Counted from the stretch's first letter, positions 34,778 to 49,959 are shown. The stretch is DNA of 64,000 bases from Acidimicrobiales bacterium (GCA_013003535.1 JABDIY010000162.1:58130-122129); one strand, 5' to 3'. Translations and numbers: made by a program. The notes: a model not told the origin generated them from the sequence alone.

Positions 34778-37700
34778 CTAGCGGAAATCTCGGCTCATCG
34801 AAGCGGCTCCGATCTTCAGCGGATCCATTCGCTCGGCCACAATGTTGATCACCGGGGTGGCCCCGGTTTCGGTTCGCTCCAGCCGACCCCGAATGATAAG
34901 CGCAGGGTTGTTCCGGGCAACCCTTCTGAAACGAGCCCAGCAGCCAACACTCACCACGACGTTCATCAATCCCGTCTCATCCTCAAGACCCATGAAGGTG
35001 ACCCCTGATGCCGTTGCCGGCCGCTGGCGATGGGTTACCACTCCCCCGATCATTACTCTCTGACCGTGTTCCACCGATGCCAACTCAGTTGCACGAAGTG
35101 CGCCCATTCTGTCCAAATCAGGTCGCAGAAAAATGGTGGGGTGACCTTCAGCCGCCACACGGGTTGCCCATAGATCAGCCAATGCCTCCTCTTGTTTGCC
35201 CATACCCGGCAGTTGGGGGGCATGAACTCCGGTAACAATTCCGGGCAACGTGTTGGGCTTGTTGGCAGCCGCTACCGCCCCGGCGGTCCACAGAGCCTGA
35301 CGACGATCAGAGCCGAAGGAGTCGAAACAGCCAGCGGTAGCCATTGCCTCAACCTGTTCTTTGGTGACGCCGGTCTTACGAACCAACTGTTCGATCGATG
35401 TATAGGGCCGGTTGGTGGCGATGGTCTCAGCCATGTCTTCACCGATCCCCCGCACCGAGCCGATCCCCAACCGCACCGCCCACCCATGGTCAAACTGATG
35501 CGGCCACGTGGCACTACCAAGTTCAGAGATGAACTCCGGGGGGGGAAACTGTCCGTCCGGAGCATGTAATTCCGCATCTGCGCCCGAAGCATTGATGTCG
35601 GGGCTTCGTGTGGCAACTCCATGGCGGCGAGCGTCTTGCACCAGCGAATGAGGTGAGTAGAAACCCATCGGTTGGGCGTTCAGCAAAGCCGCACAAAACG
35701 CCGCGGGGTAATGAAGCTTGATCCAACTGGAGGCATACACCAGATATGCAAAAGAGATGGAGTGGCTCTCGGGAAAACCGTAGTTTGCGAAGGCGACGAG
35801 CTTGACCCAGATCTGCTCCTGGACATCGGGCTCCACATCCCGTTCGGCCATACCGGCATACAGCCGCTCCTGGAGCTGCAGCATTCGCTTCACGCTGCGT
35901 TTGGAACCCATCGCCCGCCGCAGCTCATCGGCCTCGGACGGGGTGAACCCAGAAACGTCGATCGCCATCTGCATGAGCTGTTCCTGAAACAACGGGATTC
36001 CCAGCGTCTTCTCCAATGCCGGTTTCAGCAGTGGGTGCAGATAGGTCACCGGCTCCTCTCCATTGCGTCTGCGAATATATGGATGAACCGACCCACCTTG
36101 AATAGGTCCGGGCCGAATCAAGGCAATCTCCACCACCAGGTCATAGAAGTTTCGGGGCTTCAGGCGCGGCAGGGTGCTCATCTGAGCCCGGGATTCCACT
36201 TGGAACACACCAACCGAATCAGCCCGACAAAGCATCTCATAGACCTCCTCTTCCTGGGGAAGGGCAGCTAGATCGATGCGCGTACCGTGATGCTCCTCGA
36301 TCATGTCGATGGCGTAGTGGAGGGCACTCAACATGCCAAGGCCAAGGAGATCGAATTTTACCAGGCCGGCAATTGCACAGTCTTCTTTGTCCCATTGCAG
36401 AACAGTTCGGTCTTTCATTCGCCCCCACTCAACGGGGCACACCTCGATCACCGGACGATCACACATCACCATCCCACCGGAATGAATCCCCAAATGCCGA
36501 GGTAGGTCCTCGAACTCGACCGCAAGGTCCAAAACATCATCTGGAAGTTCTCTAACTCCCTCCGGGGGCCGTTCACCGCCACGGAGGCTCGCCTGCCCGG
36601 CACTCCCATAACTTCTACGTGACCCCAAACTCCGATCACTCACCGGACCTCCTCCCTCCGGGGGCCGTTCACCGCCACGGAGGCTCGCCTGCCCGGCATT
36701 GCTCACCGGACCTCCTCCCGAGTGGCGGCGAGCGGCGGCGTGAGACAACCCAGACCAGCGGTCGATGCTCTTGGAAAAAGCGTCTTGTTGGCCGGGGGCA
36801 TAACCAAGAGCCTTGGCTGCATCGCGCACTGCTGACTTGGCTCGGTAAGTGATTACGTTGGCCACCTGGGCGGCATGGCGTCGACCATGCCGTTCATACA
36901 CGTATTGGATGGCCTCCTCCCGTCGGTCGGACTCGATGTCCAGGTCGATGTCGGGTGGCCCATCACGCTCAGGAGCAAGGAACCGTTCGAACAACAGGCC
37001 GAGGCTCACCGCATCAGCCTTGGTGATCCCCAGCACATAGCAGACCGCAGAGTTTGCCGCACTCCCCCGACCCTGACACAGAATGTCCGACCGTCTGCAG
37101 AACTCCACGATGTCCCACACCACCAAGAAATAACCGGCGAACCCAAGGTGTTCGATCAGGTCGAGTTCGTGGTCCAGTTGTTTCCATGCACCGGGCACAA
37201 ATTCATCACTTCTGCTGCCATAGCGATAGACGCCGGCTTCCTCTACCAGATGCCGGAGAAATCCCATCTCGTCCATCCCATTAGGGGTGGGATAGGGCGG
37301 GAGAGCGGGAGCTACGAGAGTCAAGTCGAAGGCGCAGTCCAAACCCACGTTGGCCGCCAGTTCCACCGCCCCGGGGTAGCGGGCAAAGCGACGGGCTTGT
37401 TCGGCACCGGACCGAAGGTGTGCTCCGGGCGAAGGTGGCAGCCATCCCACGATGTCATCCAACGACGAACGGGCCCGCACTGCGGCCATCGCCGCCGCCA
37501 GCCGATGCTTGTTGGGTGTTGCGTAATGCACGTTGTTGGTGGCAAGAATTCCCAGATTGCGACGATGGGCCAATTGGACGAGAGCATCGTTGCGAACCGA
37601 GTCGAGAGGCGAACCGTGGTCCCACAGCTCAACGAACACGTTGGAGGACCCGAAGAGGTTCACCAATTCTGCCATCTCCCGATCGGCCGCTGACGGTCCG

Positions 37701-38341
37701 TGTGCTTCCAGCGCCGCTGGCACCATTCCTTTCCGGCAACCGGTGAGGGCCACAAGATGCTGAGCCTCTCCGGGTTGAAGCCAGGTGCCGATGTCGGCGA
37801 AGACCATATTGGGAGCGGTCTTCTCCCCGGCTAATTGTGACTCGCTGATCACCCGGGCCAAGGCGGCATAACCCATGGGATCCTTGGCCAACACCAACAG
37901 ATGGGAACCGTGGGGATCTGGCTCGGGAAGGGCGCCAGATTTCGGGGGGCGGGGATGGCCAAGAGTTAGTTCAGCACCGAAGATCGTGGGAAGACCAACG
38001 GTTCGGGCCGCCTGAGCAAACCGGGGAACCGCATAGAAGCCGTCGTGGTCGGTGATGGCCAAGGCGCTCAATCCCAGCCGGGCGGCCTCTTCCACCAGAT
38101 CCTCGGGGTCTGAAGCACCGTCGAGAAAACTGAAGCTGGAATGACAGTGAAGCTCGGCATAGGGCGTGGCTCCAGGAACCGAAACGATTGATCGGTCCGG
38201 CTCAAACGACTCCCGCTTGCGGCTCCACGCCGGGCTGTCACCGCCATCGGCGCCAGGGAAGTCTTCGCGTTGCAGCGGACGGTTGTCACTGAGCTTGCGC
38301 TCGATCTCCTTCCACGGCATCGGTGGGTTCATCCATCCCAT
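34778..38341 (-). CDS. dnaE2: Error-prone DNA polymerase III alpha subunit
   Basis: MGWMNPPMPW N-terminus, PHP (HCHSSFSFLDG), RGSAANS, PPDIDLD, HLGIHSGG, KFDLLGLG, SRDFR C-terminus typical of DnaE2. Confidence 0.96.
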   Translation of the reverse strand: MGWMNPPMPWKEIERKLSDNRPLQREDFPGADGGDSPAWSRKRESFEPDRSIVSVPGATPYAELHCHSSFSFLDGASDPEDLVEEAARLGLSALAITDHDGFYAVPRFAQAARTVGLPTIFGAELTLGHPRPPKSGALPEPDPHGSHLLVLAKDPMGYAALARVISESQLAGEKTAPNMVFADIGTWLQPGEAQHLVALTGCRKGMVPAALEAHGPSAADREMAELVNLFGSSNVFVELWDHGSPLDSVRNDALVQLAHRRNLGILATNNVHYATPNKHRLAAAMAAVRARSSLDDIVGWLPPSPGAHLRSGAEQARRFARYPGAVELAANVGLDCAFDLTLVAPALPPYPTPNGMDEMGFLRHLVEEAGVYRYGSRSDEFVPGAWKQLDHELDLIEHLGFAGYFLVVWDIVEFCRRSDILCQGRGSAANSAVCYVLGITKADAVSLGLLFERFLAPERDGPPDIDLDIESDRREEAIQYVYERHGRRHAAQVANVITYRAKSAVRDAAKALGYAPGQQDAFSKSIDRWSGLSHAAARRHSGGGPVSNAGQASLRGGERPPEGGGPVSDRSLGSRRSYGSAGQASLRGGERPPEGVRELPDDVLDLAVEFEDLPRHLGIHSGGMVMCDRPVIEVCPVEWGRMKDRTVLQWDKEDCAIAGLVKFDLLGLGMLSALHYAIDMIEEHHGTRIDLAALPQEEEVYEMLCRADSVGVFQVESRAQMSTLPRLKPRNFYDLVVEIALIRPGPIQGGSVHPYIRRRNGEEPVTYLHPLLKPALEKTLGIPLFQEQLMQMAIDVSGFTPSEADELRRAMGSKRSVKRMLQLQERLYAGMAERDVEPDVQEQIWVKLVAFANYGFPESHSISFAYLVYASSWIKLHYPAAFCAALLNAQPMGFYSPHSLVQDARRHGVATRSPDINASGADAELHAPDGQFPPPEFISELGSATWPHQFDHGWAVRLGIGSVRGIGEDMAETIATNRPYTSIEQLVRKTGVTKEQVEAMATAGCFDSFGSDRRQALWTAGAVAAANKPNTLPGIVTGVHAPQLPGMGKQEEALADLWATRVAAEGHPTIFLRPDLDRMGALRATELASVEHGQRVMIGGVVTHRQRPATASGVTFMGLEDETGLMNVVVSVGCWARFRRVARNNPALIIRGRLERTETGATPVINIVAERMDPLKIGAASMSRDFR
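36556..36719. repeat. In-frame duplicated 47-bp hairpin element inside dnaE2
   Basis: Identical copies 36556-36602 and 36652-36698 (96-nt period). CTCACCGGACCTCCTCCC at 36639 and 36702. Confidence 0.9.
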
Positions 38342-38358
38342 AGGGGAAGCGATGATAG

Positions 38359-38372
38359 CGAACGTTTGTTCG
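38359..38372 (-). promoter_or_regulatory. LexA SOS box in the dnaE2 promoter
   Basis: CGAAC-GTTT-GTTCG lying between minus-strand TGGACA (38376-81) and TATCAT (38352-57), 18-nt spacer. Confidence 0.9.
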
Positions 38373-38443
38373 CTCTGTCCAGATAGGCTCCGGAGGACTG
38401 GCTTGGAAACACTAGGGAACCGATTGCTCATCGGCGGCGTCAC

Positions 38444-38962
38444 ATGAGCATGCAACCCTCGGTGTTTCTCCTCTCCTTCGCACTCTTGGTCACCACCTGC
38501 GGATCCGGTTCGGCCGCTGGCAACCAAAACGATGGGTCGCCTGATTTTCATTTGAGCGAAGCGGTGCTCTCCGGCGGTATTGCGGGAATCTGCGAGCAGC
38601 TGAGGATCGATTCATCGGGGGCGATGACCTTCGTGGAATCATGCTTCTCACCAACTGGCCAGAATACGGGACAGCTCACACCCCTCGGACTCACCTCACT
38701 GGAAGACTCGCTTCGAGGCATTACCACCAACGACTTTCGATTCGACGCACCCGAGCCCGAGTGCTGCGACATGTTCAGCTTCGGCCTGACATACACCTCT
38801 ATCTCCGGAGACGACTCCCACTACATCGAAGCCACGAGCGACGAGCGGACACCCGAGGTGTTCACCCGTTCCGCTGATCTGGCCACCCAACTCATGGCCA
38901 GCCTTCGATCTTGTCAGACGACCGAATTGATGATCATCGAAGGTGATTGCTCTACGAGCTAG
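38444..38962 (+). CDS. Hypothetical lipoprotein
   Basis: Signal peptide LLVTTC, several Cys (ICE, ESC, ECCD, SCQ). Confidence 0.7.
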   Translation: MSMQPSVFLLSFALLVTTCGSGSAAGNQNDGSPDFHLSEAVLSGGIAGICEQLRIDSSGAMTFVESCFSPTGQNTGQLTPLGLTSLEDSLRGITTNDFRFDAPEPECCDMFSFGLTYTSISGDDSHYIEATSDERTPEVFTRSADLATQLMASLRSCQTTELMIIEGDCSTS

Positions 38963-47409: not shown

Positions 47410-49179
47410 TCAATAGGTGGCTTCAATCGTCCATTCTTGCTGTTCCACCGTGAGAAGGTGGGCTGTTGCATCCTCCAGTACCACCTGCATTCGGGCCCGG
47501 CGACGATGTGAGCTCGGATCCCACCAGCGTTCATCGGCCGGCCATGGGCCAGCCCAACTCATGATCTGGTGCTCCGTTTTTCCAACCACCAACCACACCG
47601 GGTCGTTCAGCATCACCCCCCGACCGCTCACCGTCACCTCCTCCCCCACCTCATCCAGAACAACCACCGAACCCACCAGAGAGCCAACCTCCGCCGGCGC
47701 AGGTGGCGGGATTTTCCCCGGCCAGGGCTGGTTCACGTTGGCGGGATCGGCACCCATCCGAGGTTCACCAAGATCAACCGCCGCCGCCGGGATCAGCCGG
47801 ATCTGTTCGGCCGGTCCCCGCCCGCCACTCCACTCAGGCACCCGGACCGAATCAGCACCGAGGATCCCTTGTAAACGCGCCACGGTTCGCGAAACATCGT
47901 CGGCTCGTTCGGCTCGACCTCCCCAGAATCCCAGCTGCCGTCCCGTGGCAGGAACAACTTCGTCTGGGATTAACGTGAGCCGGGCGATCGCTGATCCAAC
48001 CCCGGCATCGGGATCGCGACCGGCTCCAGCGTGTCCCATTCGAGCCTGGTGCAACCATCCGTCCAGCTGCCACCGGGCCCGTTCTGCCAACGCTGCGGCG
48101 GACAACGTTCCTTCATGACGCCAAAGTCGACTGAACTCCTCGCCAGCTTCGGTCTCTGCCTCGATTGCCACCCGGATACACGCCAGTCCCTTCTCTTCCA
48201 GCGATCGATGCAGCTCATCGGCCAGCGCCTTGGCCGCGAAGGCGCACGGGTCGATCCGTTCGGTAGGGGGGTCGAAAAGCCACGTGACCGCCATATCGGT
48301 CGCTGGACGACGCAGATCGGGCGGATACTGATCCACTCCCCGAGCCAGCCGATGGGCCATCAACCCTTCAGCGCCGAAGCGGCCAACAACATCATTGGCG
48401 CTGATTTCCGCGAACTGGCCGAGCGTCCGGAGCCCCAGCCGAACCAACACGTCGACCAAATCGGGTAACTCCAACACATCCACACCGAAGCCAGCGAGAA
48501 AGCCCGCACTTTCCCCGGAGGGGACGATCACCGGTTGCCCTATCGCGCCGGCCAACTGACCATCACCAAAGATTTTTGATGCTGTTTGAGCAGCCATGCG
48601 AGCAGCAAAAACACCATCGGCCATTCCTACGAATAGCTCACCACGATCCGCCAGGACAGGGGTCAGTGTCTCCTGCACTTTTTGAGCCAACGCTTCATCG
48701 CCGCCGAAGAACCGCGACGGACCGCGGGTTGGGAATCCCACAAGACCGGGGCCGGCGACCTCTACCCGGGGAGTCATGTTGGTCAGGGCAGCAGCCACCG
48801 GTTCAAACAAACGGGCCTCTCGGTCGGTGTCTTGTTCCAAGACAGCGAGATCGGGACAGCGACTCTGGGCGTCCCGGCGGCGTTGCCCCACCCGAACACC
48901 ATCGATCCGTGCCCCGGGACTGCAAGAAACCACCCGGTTTGCCACGAACACCGCGGCCGGTTCGTTCAGTGGAACTCCCCATGCCACCACCGGCCAATCG
49001 GGACAGAGCACCACCGCCATTCGGGTGGAAAGCACGGAAGGATGCGCCGCCTCGGCCCTCCGGGGGCCGTTCTCTGACTCCCTCCGGGGGCCGTTCAAAC
49101 GCCACGGATGCTCTGCCTTCGGCGAGGCAACAACTGCATCGTCCGGTTCAGGCATAGCTACAAAAGGCATGTCCGTCAC
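47410..49179 (-). CDS. imuB: ImuB (inactive Y-family polymerase)
   Basis: LCPDWP, GVRVGQRRRDAQSRCP, LGLRTLGQFA, WSWAGPW-like WAGPWPADERWW. GTGA overlap with the imuA' stop; an alternative start at MAVVLCPDWP is possible. Confidence 0.9.
   Translation of the reverse strand: MTDMPFVAMPEPDDAVVASPKAEHPWRLNGPRRESENGPRRAEAAHPSVLSTRMAVVLCPDWPVVAWGVPLNEPAAVFVANRVVSCSPGARIDGVRVGQRRRDAQSRCPDLAVLEQDTDREARLFEPVAAALTNMTPRVEVAGPGLVGFPTRGPSRFFGGDEALAQKVQETLTPVLADRGELFVGMADGVFAARMAAQTASKIFGDGQLAGAIGQPVIVPSGESAGFLAGFGVDVLELPDLVDVLVRLGLRTLGQFAEISANDVVGRFGAEGLMAHRLARGVDQYPPDLRRPATDMAVTWLFDPPTERIDPCAFAAKALADELHRSLEEKGLACIRVAIEAETEAGEEFSRLWRHEGTLSAAALAERARWQLDGWLHQARMGHAGAGRDPDAGVGSAIARLTLIPDEVVPATGRQLGFWGGRAERADDVSRTVARLQGILGADSVRVPEWSGGRGPAEQIRLIPAAAVDLGEPRMGADPANVNQPWPGKIPPPAPAEVGSLVGSVVVLDEVGEEVTVSGRGVMLNDPVWLVVGKTEHQIMSWAGPWPADERWWDPSSHRRRARMQVVLEDATAHLLTVEQQEWTIEATY
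49033..49123. repeat. Copies of the dnaE2 hairpin element in the imuB 5' region
   Basis: CCCTCCGGGGGCCGTTC at 49056-72 and CTCCCTCCGGGGGCCGTTCAAACGCCACGGATGCTC at 49078. Confidence 0.85.
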
Positions 49180-49895
49180 GGAGACTCGCCTCCCCATGCG
49201 CCGTAACGGAGTTCGGTGACGGTGGCGAGTTCCTGGGCGGCGGTGAGAGGGCCGTCGGGGCCTGGCATCCACAACGACACCGAACGGGGTTGTGCTGCTG
49301 AGCGCCGACCAGCCGCCTCCACCTTCATTCGCCGGTATCGCAGATAGCCATTTCCCTGGCCAATCCCTTCCCACTCCTGGGTTTGGCAGGTCAATTTCAT
49401 GTCTAGACCACTGGGCCAGGTTGCACCGCCGTCCAAATGCAGGAGGGTTCCTCGCTGTTCTCTTAGCCGAGCAGCGATCCGCCGGGCATCTCGGTTACCG
49501 ATGCTCGATGACGGACAAATCACCACCACCTGCACAGCTTCCAACAATGCCGCCACCACCGTGCCCCACTGTCCCGCTGGCGGTGTGTCCACCACCAACA
49601 CCCGATCCATGCGTAGTCCCACTTCGGCACCAGCGACCAGGTTGAACAACGGTGCTCCAACCACAGCCATCCAACCTTCGTCCCCCAGCGAAGGGACCAT
49701 CATTCCTGCAGTGAGCGTCCATGCCCCAGGACCCGACACACCCACCTGCCAACCCCGTTGAAGCCCACCCCAAGGAAAGAGTGGAGAAAGAGCCTCTGGA
49801 ACATCGAGCAGCTGTTCGTTGGACAGCGTGGTGGGCCGAACCGCCTCCAGAATCCTGGGGTCCAGCGCTGCCAAACCCGTTGCATGCCCGTTCAC
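49176..49895 (-). CDS. imuA: ImuA'-like RecA-fold accessory protein
   Basis: LFPWGGLQRG, VGLRMDRVLVV, RRIAARLREQRG. Directly upstream of imuB and behind an SOS box. Confidence 0.85.
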   Translation of the reverse strand: MNGHATGLAALDPRILEAVRPTTLSNEQLLDVPEALSPLFPWGGLQRGWQVGVSGPGAWTLTAGMMVPSLGDEGWMAVVGAPLFNLVAGAEVGLRMDRVLVVDTPPAGQWGTVVAALLEAVQVVVICPSSSIGNRDARRIAARLREQRGTLLHLDGGATWPSGLDMKLTCQTQEWEGIGQGNGYLRYRRMKVEAAGRRSAAQPRSVSLWMPGPDGPLTAAQELATVTELRYGAWGGESP

Positions 49896-49907
49896 CACTC
49901 CAGCATA

Positions 49908-49921
49908 CGAACATATGTTCG
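49908..49921 (-). promoter_or_regulatory. LexA SOS box in the imuA' promoter
   Basis: Perfect CGAAC-ATAT-GTTCG abutting minus-strand TATGCT (49902-07), 6 nt before GTG 49895. Confidence 0.92.
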
Positions 49922-49959
49922 CATCACGCAACAGCATCACGCAACAGCATCACGCAACA
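49921..49959. repeat. 13-nt tandem repeat x3 (GCATCACGCAACA)
   Basis: Three perfect copies starting at the last base of the SOS box. Confidence 0.9.

Follow-up and report, generated by a model that had tools for sequence, protein, structure and literature searches.

Short hairpin-forming repeats that are translated in frame within dnaE2, the gene of an error-prone DNA polymerase, have been described before. Where repetitive extragenic palindromes (REPs) lie inside genes, these are 'predominantly' genes for replication and repair, dnaE2 among them (Di Nocera, De Gregorio & Rocco 2013, BMC Genomics 14:522, PMC3733652). One REP occupies residues 934-971 of the dnaE2 product of Opitutus terrae (Oter_4053) and another residues 166-246, or 81 aa, of that of Sphingomonas wittichii (Swit_1119); intragenic REPs frequently come as dimers or groups, with 20-82 residues encoded, and it is often the case that a species has no REP-tagged coding sequence besides these genes (PMC3733652). 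The same authors speculated on mutator effects and gave no mechanism (PMC3733652). Here we analysed a window of 64,000 nt (JABDIY010000162.1:58130-122129 of GCA_013003535.1, the whole stretch of DNA studied) in which dnaE2 carries two in-frame units of a dispersed repeat, termed family 1. Repeats inside dnaE2 have been known since 2013, and the present locus is a new example that is unusual for its recurrence within one genus. Overall it is best, and in our judgement quite probably, explained by the entry of a repeat, selfish or neutral, into a disordered loop that tolerates it, followed by local amplification and retention of the frame. The source genome, G000, is an uncultured Acidimicrobiales metagenome-assembled genome (MAG) of 4.0 Mb with 61% G+C in 221 contigs, roughly 96% complete; C numbers denote its contigs, the window lies on C46, and positions given without a contig are those of the window.

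As in the REP cases, short hairpin-forming intergenic repeats are translated in frame within dnaE2, and family 1 consists, like REPs, of many mostly extragenic, short, imperfect palindromes. The GTAG/CGTC tag found at the end of REP stems is absent from the family consensus GTGCTGTGATTCCCTCCGGGGGCCGTTCAACCGCCACGGAGGCTCCGCCTTCGGCGCTGCAACAGGTGCCTCG and from the dnaE2 copies. A REP-associated tyrosine transposase (RAYT) gene flanked by repeats, a so-called REPtron, was not found, which in a MAG that is ~96% complete leaves its absence unproven. Family-1 units are moreover longer (~100 nt) than published REPs and are arranged head to tail, whereas REPs form inverted dimers; the host belongs to an Acidimicrobiia lineage outside the 2013 coverage, and two unrelated repeat families in both orientations occupy the same gene within one genus. 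The preliminary description of the locus had taken Rickettsia palindromic elements (RPEs) as its precedent. RPE-1 to RPE-10 are, as summarized in papers that cite the original accounts, selfish repeats tolerated in frame in functional genes (Ogata et al. 2000, 2002, cited in PMC3733652 and PMC10969869). The likeness lies in the addition of surface peptide segments by in-frame repeats within functional genes; however, by these summaries RPEs occupy many genes per genome, which makes them the looser analogue and intragenic REPs in dnaE2 the closest precedent, whereas here dnaE2 alone is occupied, every other copy checked lies between genes and the arrangement is tandem. Transposable elements of the miniature inverted-repeat type (MITEs, e.g. 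Correia/NEMIS and Nezha) are small, non-autonomous, structured elements that are sometimes co-transcribed or translated (PMC10969869). Family 1 resembles them in being small, non-autonomous and structured; the terminal inverted repeats of 15-30 bp and the target-site duplication of MITEs are lacking, the only arms being internal and 9 nt long, and no cognate insertion sequence was found for family 1. A likeness of habit, in this case an actinobacterial one, also exists with mycobacterial interspersed repetitive units and variable-number tandem repeats (MIRU/VNTR), which are reportedly dispersed intergenic units of 40-100 nt amplified locally head to tail, also within operons. MIRUs were defined in the Mycobacterium tuberculosis complex, where they are mostly intergenic. 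Family 1 likewise comprises dispersed intergenic units of 40-135 nt amplified head to tail, with periods of 83-135 nt (189 nt at one locus) between genes and of 96/63 nt in dnaE2, and the MIRU habit of entering operons can be likened to a family-1 copy in the spacer between imuA' and imuB described below.

The 47-mer CTCCCTCCGGGGGCCGTTCACCGCCACGGAGGCTCGCCTGCCCGGCA was found without mismatch at 36556-36602 and 36652-36698, 96 nt apart, while none of 100 shuffles of the window contained such a match. It encodes the peptide AGQASLRGGERPPEG twice, at residues 619-633 and 651-665, with the frame kept, between ...SKSIDRWSGLSH and ELPDDV...PRHLGIHSGG; these claims of the preliminary description thus hold exactly. 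The whole insert, AAARRHSGGGPVSNAGQASLRGGERPPEGGGPVSDRSLGSRRSYGSAGQASLRGGERPPEGVR, spans 36551..36739 on the minus strand and amounts to 189 nt or 63 codons (residues 605-667) with a composition of G15 R10 S9 A7 P6. What had been described as a palindromic 47-bp element does contain an inverted repeat (CCTCCGGGG/CCACGGAGG, 9-nt arms that are 89% complementary in the dnaE2 copy), does not by prediction fold more stably than shuffles of its sequence (z = 0.1 to 0.7) and turned out to be the core of a ~100-nt unit made up of leader, core and tail. Unit A is full length (36549..36651, plus strand) and consists of the leader TCTCTAACT, the core at 36556-36602 and a tail ending in CTCACCGGACCTC; its limits were set by comparison with intergenic tandem units of C31, C87, C6 and C145, and the nhmmer hit that represents it on the contig is C46:94678-94743, at 51 bits. 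Unit B (36652..36719, plus strand) has the same core at 36652-36698, followed by TTG and the tail box CTCACCGGACCTCCTCCC, the TTG replacing 36 nt of the unit A tail for a net deletion of 33 nt. A repeat search returned this box as an 18-nt direct repeat on the plus strand at 36639..36656 and 36702..36719; since it is the tail box of the unit, and related boxes (GGACTGCTCA / GGACTCCTC) are carried by intergenic units, it is not read as a target-site duplication. Both the spacing of the cores (96 nt) and that of the tail boxes (63 nt) can be divided by 3. The family-1 unit consensus is open in four of its six frames, and the dnaE2 copies are read in one of these. The longest good match elsewhere in the genome, at C31:10725-10847, runs from unit A into unit B. 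The two units adjoin GCCGCCGCTCGCCGCCACTCGG (36720..36741, minus strand), 22 nt that remain from the 5' end of another repeat, termed family 2, and make up the insert together with it; this remnant lies on the coding strand and encodes AAARRHS; the same box begins the family-2 units found in the dnaE2 loops of the congeners G002 and G005 and in intergenic family-2 units of G000.

Alignment of 30 relatives breaks at residues ~603/667, and by this comparison the 63-codon segment is an indel, as had been proposed. In most genera the stretch from ...SKxIDxW to ELPxDV is bridged by 5-15 residues, the congener G009 has a short empty loop, GLRSQHEH, and an older loop of ~35 residues is common to five congeners. 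Compared with Pol III alpha structures, the insert site falls in the gap between matched segments (query 594 and 672), at an aligned position between ~461 and 493 of E. coli Pol III alpha and 524-556 of the Taq enzyme. With the thumb-domain limits that we take to be those of Lamers et al. 2006, this would place the insert in the thumb domain of DnaE2. An AlphaFold model built on a 28-sequence alignment (mean pLDDT 71.5) left the insert, model residues 542-597, without secondary structure at a pLDDT of 25-37, between predicted helices at 532-540 and 601-610. The insert is accordingly predicted to be a disordered loop, in agreement with the peptide loop originally envisaged.

The maximal open reading frame (ORF) holding both 47-mers, as obtained by ORF calling and translation, extends over 34778..38551 on the minus strand. 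It contains the Pfam domains PHP, DNA_pol3_alpha, finger, HHH_6 and OB and scores 1398.6 bits against the NCBIfam model NF004225 'error-prone DNA polymerase', the cut-off of which is 939. Together with a LexA box and imuA'-imuB partners this identifies the frame as error-prone DnaE2 (ImuC). Its first 70 codons were rejected as coding, as orthologues start at MGWMNPP; the dnaE2 coding sequence thus runs from M71 of the maximal frame to the stop, 34778..38341 on the minus strand, 1187 aa, in agreement with the public gene call on the source contig, likewise 1187 aa. Named matches to the protein at 60-70% identity come from Acidimicrobiales, Ilumatobacteraceae and Microthrixaceae MAGs. A perfect LexA/SOS box, CGAACGTTTGTTCG, is located at 38359..38372, 18 nt upstream of the dnaE2 ATG (38341), and is one of only two zero-mismatch LexA boxes in the window, the other heading imuA'. 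The box falls inside the spurious 70-codon extension; at the corresponding place the spurious upstream frame of relatives encodes SEQTF, NEHMF or GEHMF, which, judging from these translations, is probably the same conserved LexA box.

A 63-residue insert in the thumb could disturb DNA binding, and one may ask whether it has inactivated DnaE2 and left a decaying gene. We regard this as highly improbable, since the 1187-codon frame is intact, the perfect LexA box and the catalytic motifs DIDLDIE and KFDLLGLG are kept, and congeners with larger inserts also keep the frame. The ratio dN/dS was 0.11 against the closest congener, G002 (dS 0.50), and 0.04-0.06 against G006 and G008, values that indicate purifying selection on dnaE2. 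On the basis of its frame, LexA box, dN/dS and catalytic motifs the gene looks functional with the insert in place.

Across the 4.0-Mb genome, BLAST and an nhmmer profile returned 69 copies of family 1 at ~45 loci, so that the 47-mer does belong to a dispersed family; those copies checked outside dnaE2 all lie between genes. The consensus is GTGCTGTGATT-CCCTCCGGGGGCCGTTCAACCGCCACGGAGGCTCCGCCTTCGGC-GCTGCAACAGGTGC, and a full unit measures ~95-135 nt: the core follows a leader, either GCTGTGTTGT or CTCTAACT, and is itself followed by a tail that closes with a box resembling GGACTGCTCA. The units are usually arrayed head to tail in groups of 2-4, with periods of 83 nt at C87, 94 at C146, 102 at C107, 105 at C30, 120 at C36, 121 at C31, 134 at C46:181.7k, 135 at C6 and 189 at C145. 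Two stems show compensatory variants across the family. In stem 1 these are CCGT...ACGG (30 copies), GCGT...ACGC (7 copies) and CAGC...GCTG (2 copies), and in stem 2 GGAGGC-N3-GCCTCC is replaced by GCAGGC-N3-GCCTGC; the dnaE2 copies carry a mismatch in the second stem. The compensatory changes suggest that family 1 is maintained as a nucleic-acid structure, and nothing points to its retention for the peptide. A search of Rfam gave no match over the whole window at gathering scores and chance-level matches only (E >= 1.7) at 36400-36900, on which grounds a known RNA, intron or riboswitch at the insert was rejected. Within the 41 genomes sampled from the bacterial family, family 1 was found in 6; its distribution is patchy, with high copy numbers in G000 and one genome from a different genus and with few or no copies found in most of the 41, and in this sample it appears lineage-specific.

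The two dnaE2 cores are identical at 47/47 positions, whereas the closest family-1 copies elsewhere are 94-97% identical to them. This difference points to a recent local duplication and makes two separate insertions less likely. The identity of the cores, the head-to-tail order of the units and the tandem habit of the family at many intergenic loci together argue for one tandem dimer, and the wording of the preliminary description, in which the element had been inserted twice, is better replaced by this reading. Two independent neighbouring insertions, with no local duplication, would be in keeping with the different unit tails (36 nt in one, TTG in the other) and with the multi-unit nature of other loci; however, the units directly adjoin one another head to tail, as do the nearly identical units within the intergenic arrays of C6, C36 and C31, and we consider such a double event improbable. 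Alternatively, the dimer or its unit number could have been made by mis-assembly of a dispersed repeat. The MAG is in 221 contigs, family-2 arrays at several contig ends indicate that repeats trouble the assembly, and the allele is unique in public data. The repeated pieces, at 47 and 18 nt, are nevertheless below usual read and k-mer lengths, the contig of 193.6 kb matches relatives colinearly to either side of the locus, the 189 nt leave the frame exactly intact, and independent assemblies of congeners have analogous in-frame arrays in dnaE2. An assembly artefact is therefore very unlikely.

Inserts of this kind were observed in dnaE2 of several members of the genus, at the thumb loop and at a second loop near residue 1000. 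G000 carries family 1 in the thumb loop, antisense to the consensus as oriented here, and nothing in the second loop. The thumb loop of G002 holds family 2. Its second loop holds four family-1 units with a 99-nt period, opposite in orientation to those of G000 (LPPGAVPPATEAS...), plus a family-2 unit; this in-frame second-loop insert (L036, 4363-4726 and beyond) amounts to ~170 residues in a dnaE2 open frame of 1413 codons. Family 2 also occupies the thumb loop of G005 (no entry for the second loop) and, in reverse orientation, that of G006, where the second loop is without insert. Weak family-2 matches were obtained in the thumb loop of G001, the second loop of which contains two family-1 units. 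Further dnaE2 arrays lie at other places in G009, G020 and G017. These take the form of EARGLHESRSARSRVPVDGAASAPPSQRHE twice in frame in G009 (L044), of three in-frame ESRMGGAPGGGLSPPKQ units of ~35 residues in the helix-hairpin-helix region of G020 (L040) and of a C-terminal insert in G017 (L038).

The course of events that we infer would start from a lineage-specific, non-autonomous family-1 unit with two short stems that is normally intergenic. Such a unit would have entered the hypervariable disordered thumb loop beside an older family-2 fragment, and local duplication by slippage or unequal exchange would then have given a head-to-tail dimer, one copy of which lost a net 33 nt. Selection would have retained only frame-keeping, stop-free arrangements, and the product would be a 63-residue Gly/Arg/Ser/Ala/Pro loop, presumably neutral, translated as filler in a polymerase that remains functional under SOS control. 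Several observations weigh against this explanation. Folds of single units were no more stable than those of shuffled sequences (z -0.5 to +0.7); the notion of a strong palindrome was dropped for this reason, and what stands of the fold is the compensatory change in the two family stems. No transposase, terminal inverted repeats or clear target-site duplication were found, for which reason 'mobile' is a term we can only infer, and of the mobile hairpin once proposed to create polymerase loops it is the dispersed repeat translated as an extra loop that holds. A second public assembly with this dnaE2 allele was not found, and the protein cluster has a single member. Finally, G002 has both border boxes of the G000 insert, AAARR(H/R)S on one side and CGGAGGGAGTTA on the other, and part of the arrangement may therefore predate the split of the two genomes. 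A single insertion would then not account for the whole history, in which gains, losses and amplification may have followed. One gene of the genome was considered as a mobiliser of family 1, namely its single Y1 transposase homologue, which is IS200/RAYT-like with a C-terminal extension (C209:1230-2183; PF01797 match at C209:1425-1721, 29.6 bits); it was rejected as its flanks match nothing else in the genome and carry no repeats.

Other coding hosts were sought in a census of the open frames spanning each family-1 copy and each region to which an all-against-all BLAST gave at least 4 dispersed self-matches. Only in dnaE2 was there real protein on both sides of the repeat, and no other gene of G000 emerged as a credible coding host for a dispersed repeat from this census, the exhaustiveness of which is limited by its thresholds (at least 4 self-matches, ORFs of at least 250 aa). 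Long frames at C87, C219, C68, C103, C146, C175 and C145:91.6k were rejected as they have no Pfam match and look like antisense frames or noise. At C46:107.2k, C172, C70, C190 and C58 the repeat precedes the true start, the genes at these five loci being imuB, cysC and those for a DnaJ protein, an aminotransferase and a metallo-beta-lactamase (MBL)/rhodanese protein, and C18 contains a genuine internal protein-domain repeat and no dispersed element. The mutasome genes imuA' and imuB are located ~9 kb from dnaE2. imuB (47413..49020, minus strand, 536 aa) lies beside imuA' (49176..~49900 within an ORF of 49176..49940), which is headed by the second perfect LexA box, CGAACATATGTTCG, at 49908..49921. 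A family-1 copy with 62 bits by nhmmer occupies 49073..49139 (plus strand) of the 155-nt spacer between the two genes, its orientation with respect to transcription being that of the dnaE2 copies. This spacer copy has a partial extra core and ends up ~50 nt upstream of the imuB start codon. Placed uniformly, 2 of ~45 family-1 loci would fall within the ~6.1 kb of mutasome DNA with a P of ~0.002, a rough figure.

These observations raise the possibility that mutasome genes are specific targets or beneficiaries of hairpin repeats, beyond mere tolerance, such that the repeats would gather preferentially in these genes or persist there. Insertion could, for instance, go along with transcription induced by SOS or with template switching that depends on the mutasome; alternatively, the inserts could have been recruited to act in cis as brakes on the mRNA or protein of the mutasome. 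The standing of dnaE2 as the only credible coding host in G000 and the second locus in the imuA'-imuB spacer are in favour of such targeting, as are the several separate inserts in the genus, which draw on two families and occur in both orientations at two or three loops, and the frequency with which repair genes are the sole REP-tagged coding sequences of a species (PMC3733652). On the other hand, both orientations and several frames argue against a strand-specific RNA or peptide function, and the inserts lie where AlphaFold predicts disorder, as simple tolerance predicts. The coding sequence of imuB is furthermore colinear and free of inserts in 11 genomes (G000 and 10 congeners), on which account it was also rejected as a coding host, and nhmmer returned no comparable spacer copy in the imuB loci of ten congeners, leaving that of G000 as the only one. 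Targeting in any of these variants is thus unlikely, although less so than the alternatives considered above, and entry of a selfish or neutral repeat into a tolerant loop is preferred.

Taken alone, the insert is a neutral-looking decoration of a non-essential polymerase, and its value lies in the pattern, in which the only repeat-invaded protein gene is dnaE2, a copy sits inside the imuA'-imuB operon and sister genomes have undergone separate in-frame invasions of dnaE2 by two repeat families. A bias of such repeats towards repair genes was noted in 2013 and has stayed without explanation. With so many recent events that can be dated, this genus could be used to pit tolerance against targeting or regulation, and for the question of mutasome targeting it would constitute a natural experiment, with several separate inserts from two families, in both orientations and at two or three loops. 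In practical terms, public DnaE2 gene calls can hide 60-170 residues of repeat-derived filler.

Several further observations concern the repeats of G000. Family 2 (...CCGCTCGCCGGCGCTCGTTCCTCGCTCTGGGTCGCTTC..CTCGCTCCGCTCGAACAA...GCTGCTCCGTCCCTCCGCAGCCTCACG) is a second dispersed repeat of G000 and its congeners and is tandemly arrayed, with G000 loci at C11:16-129, C196:3-188, C117:26-320, C169:3-205, C181, C96 and C46:139906-140004; as many of these are at contig ends, family 2 probably breaks the assembly. The box GTGCTG-N4-GTCCCTCCG is common to families 1 and 2. Repeat units directly adjoin the 3' ends of tRNA genes at C16:8829 and C198:37257 (family 1) and at C11:~130 (family 2). A flank of ~40 nt, AGCCTGCGGCGCGATGTGAGCTGGC..ATGATTGCTGT, recurs before some family-1 cores, namely at C219:26380, C199, C194, C73 (twice), C66, C115:18440 and C7:84680, which suggests a longer composite element or a subfamily of family 1. 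A further repeat, AAATTCCTGTCGAGAGCCACAAGCCGTGTGGCTGTGATGGGGGCAGAAAG..., is present in at least 4 copies, among them C58:6889-6965 and C145:91591-91669; in C58 it lies just upstream of the MBL-fold/rhodanese gene, and this could represent a cis-regulatory RNA or a further repeat family.

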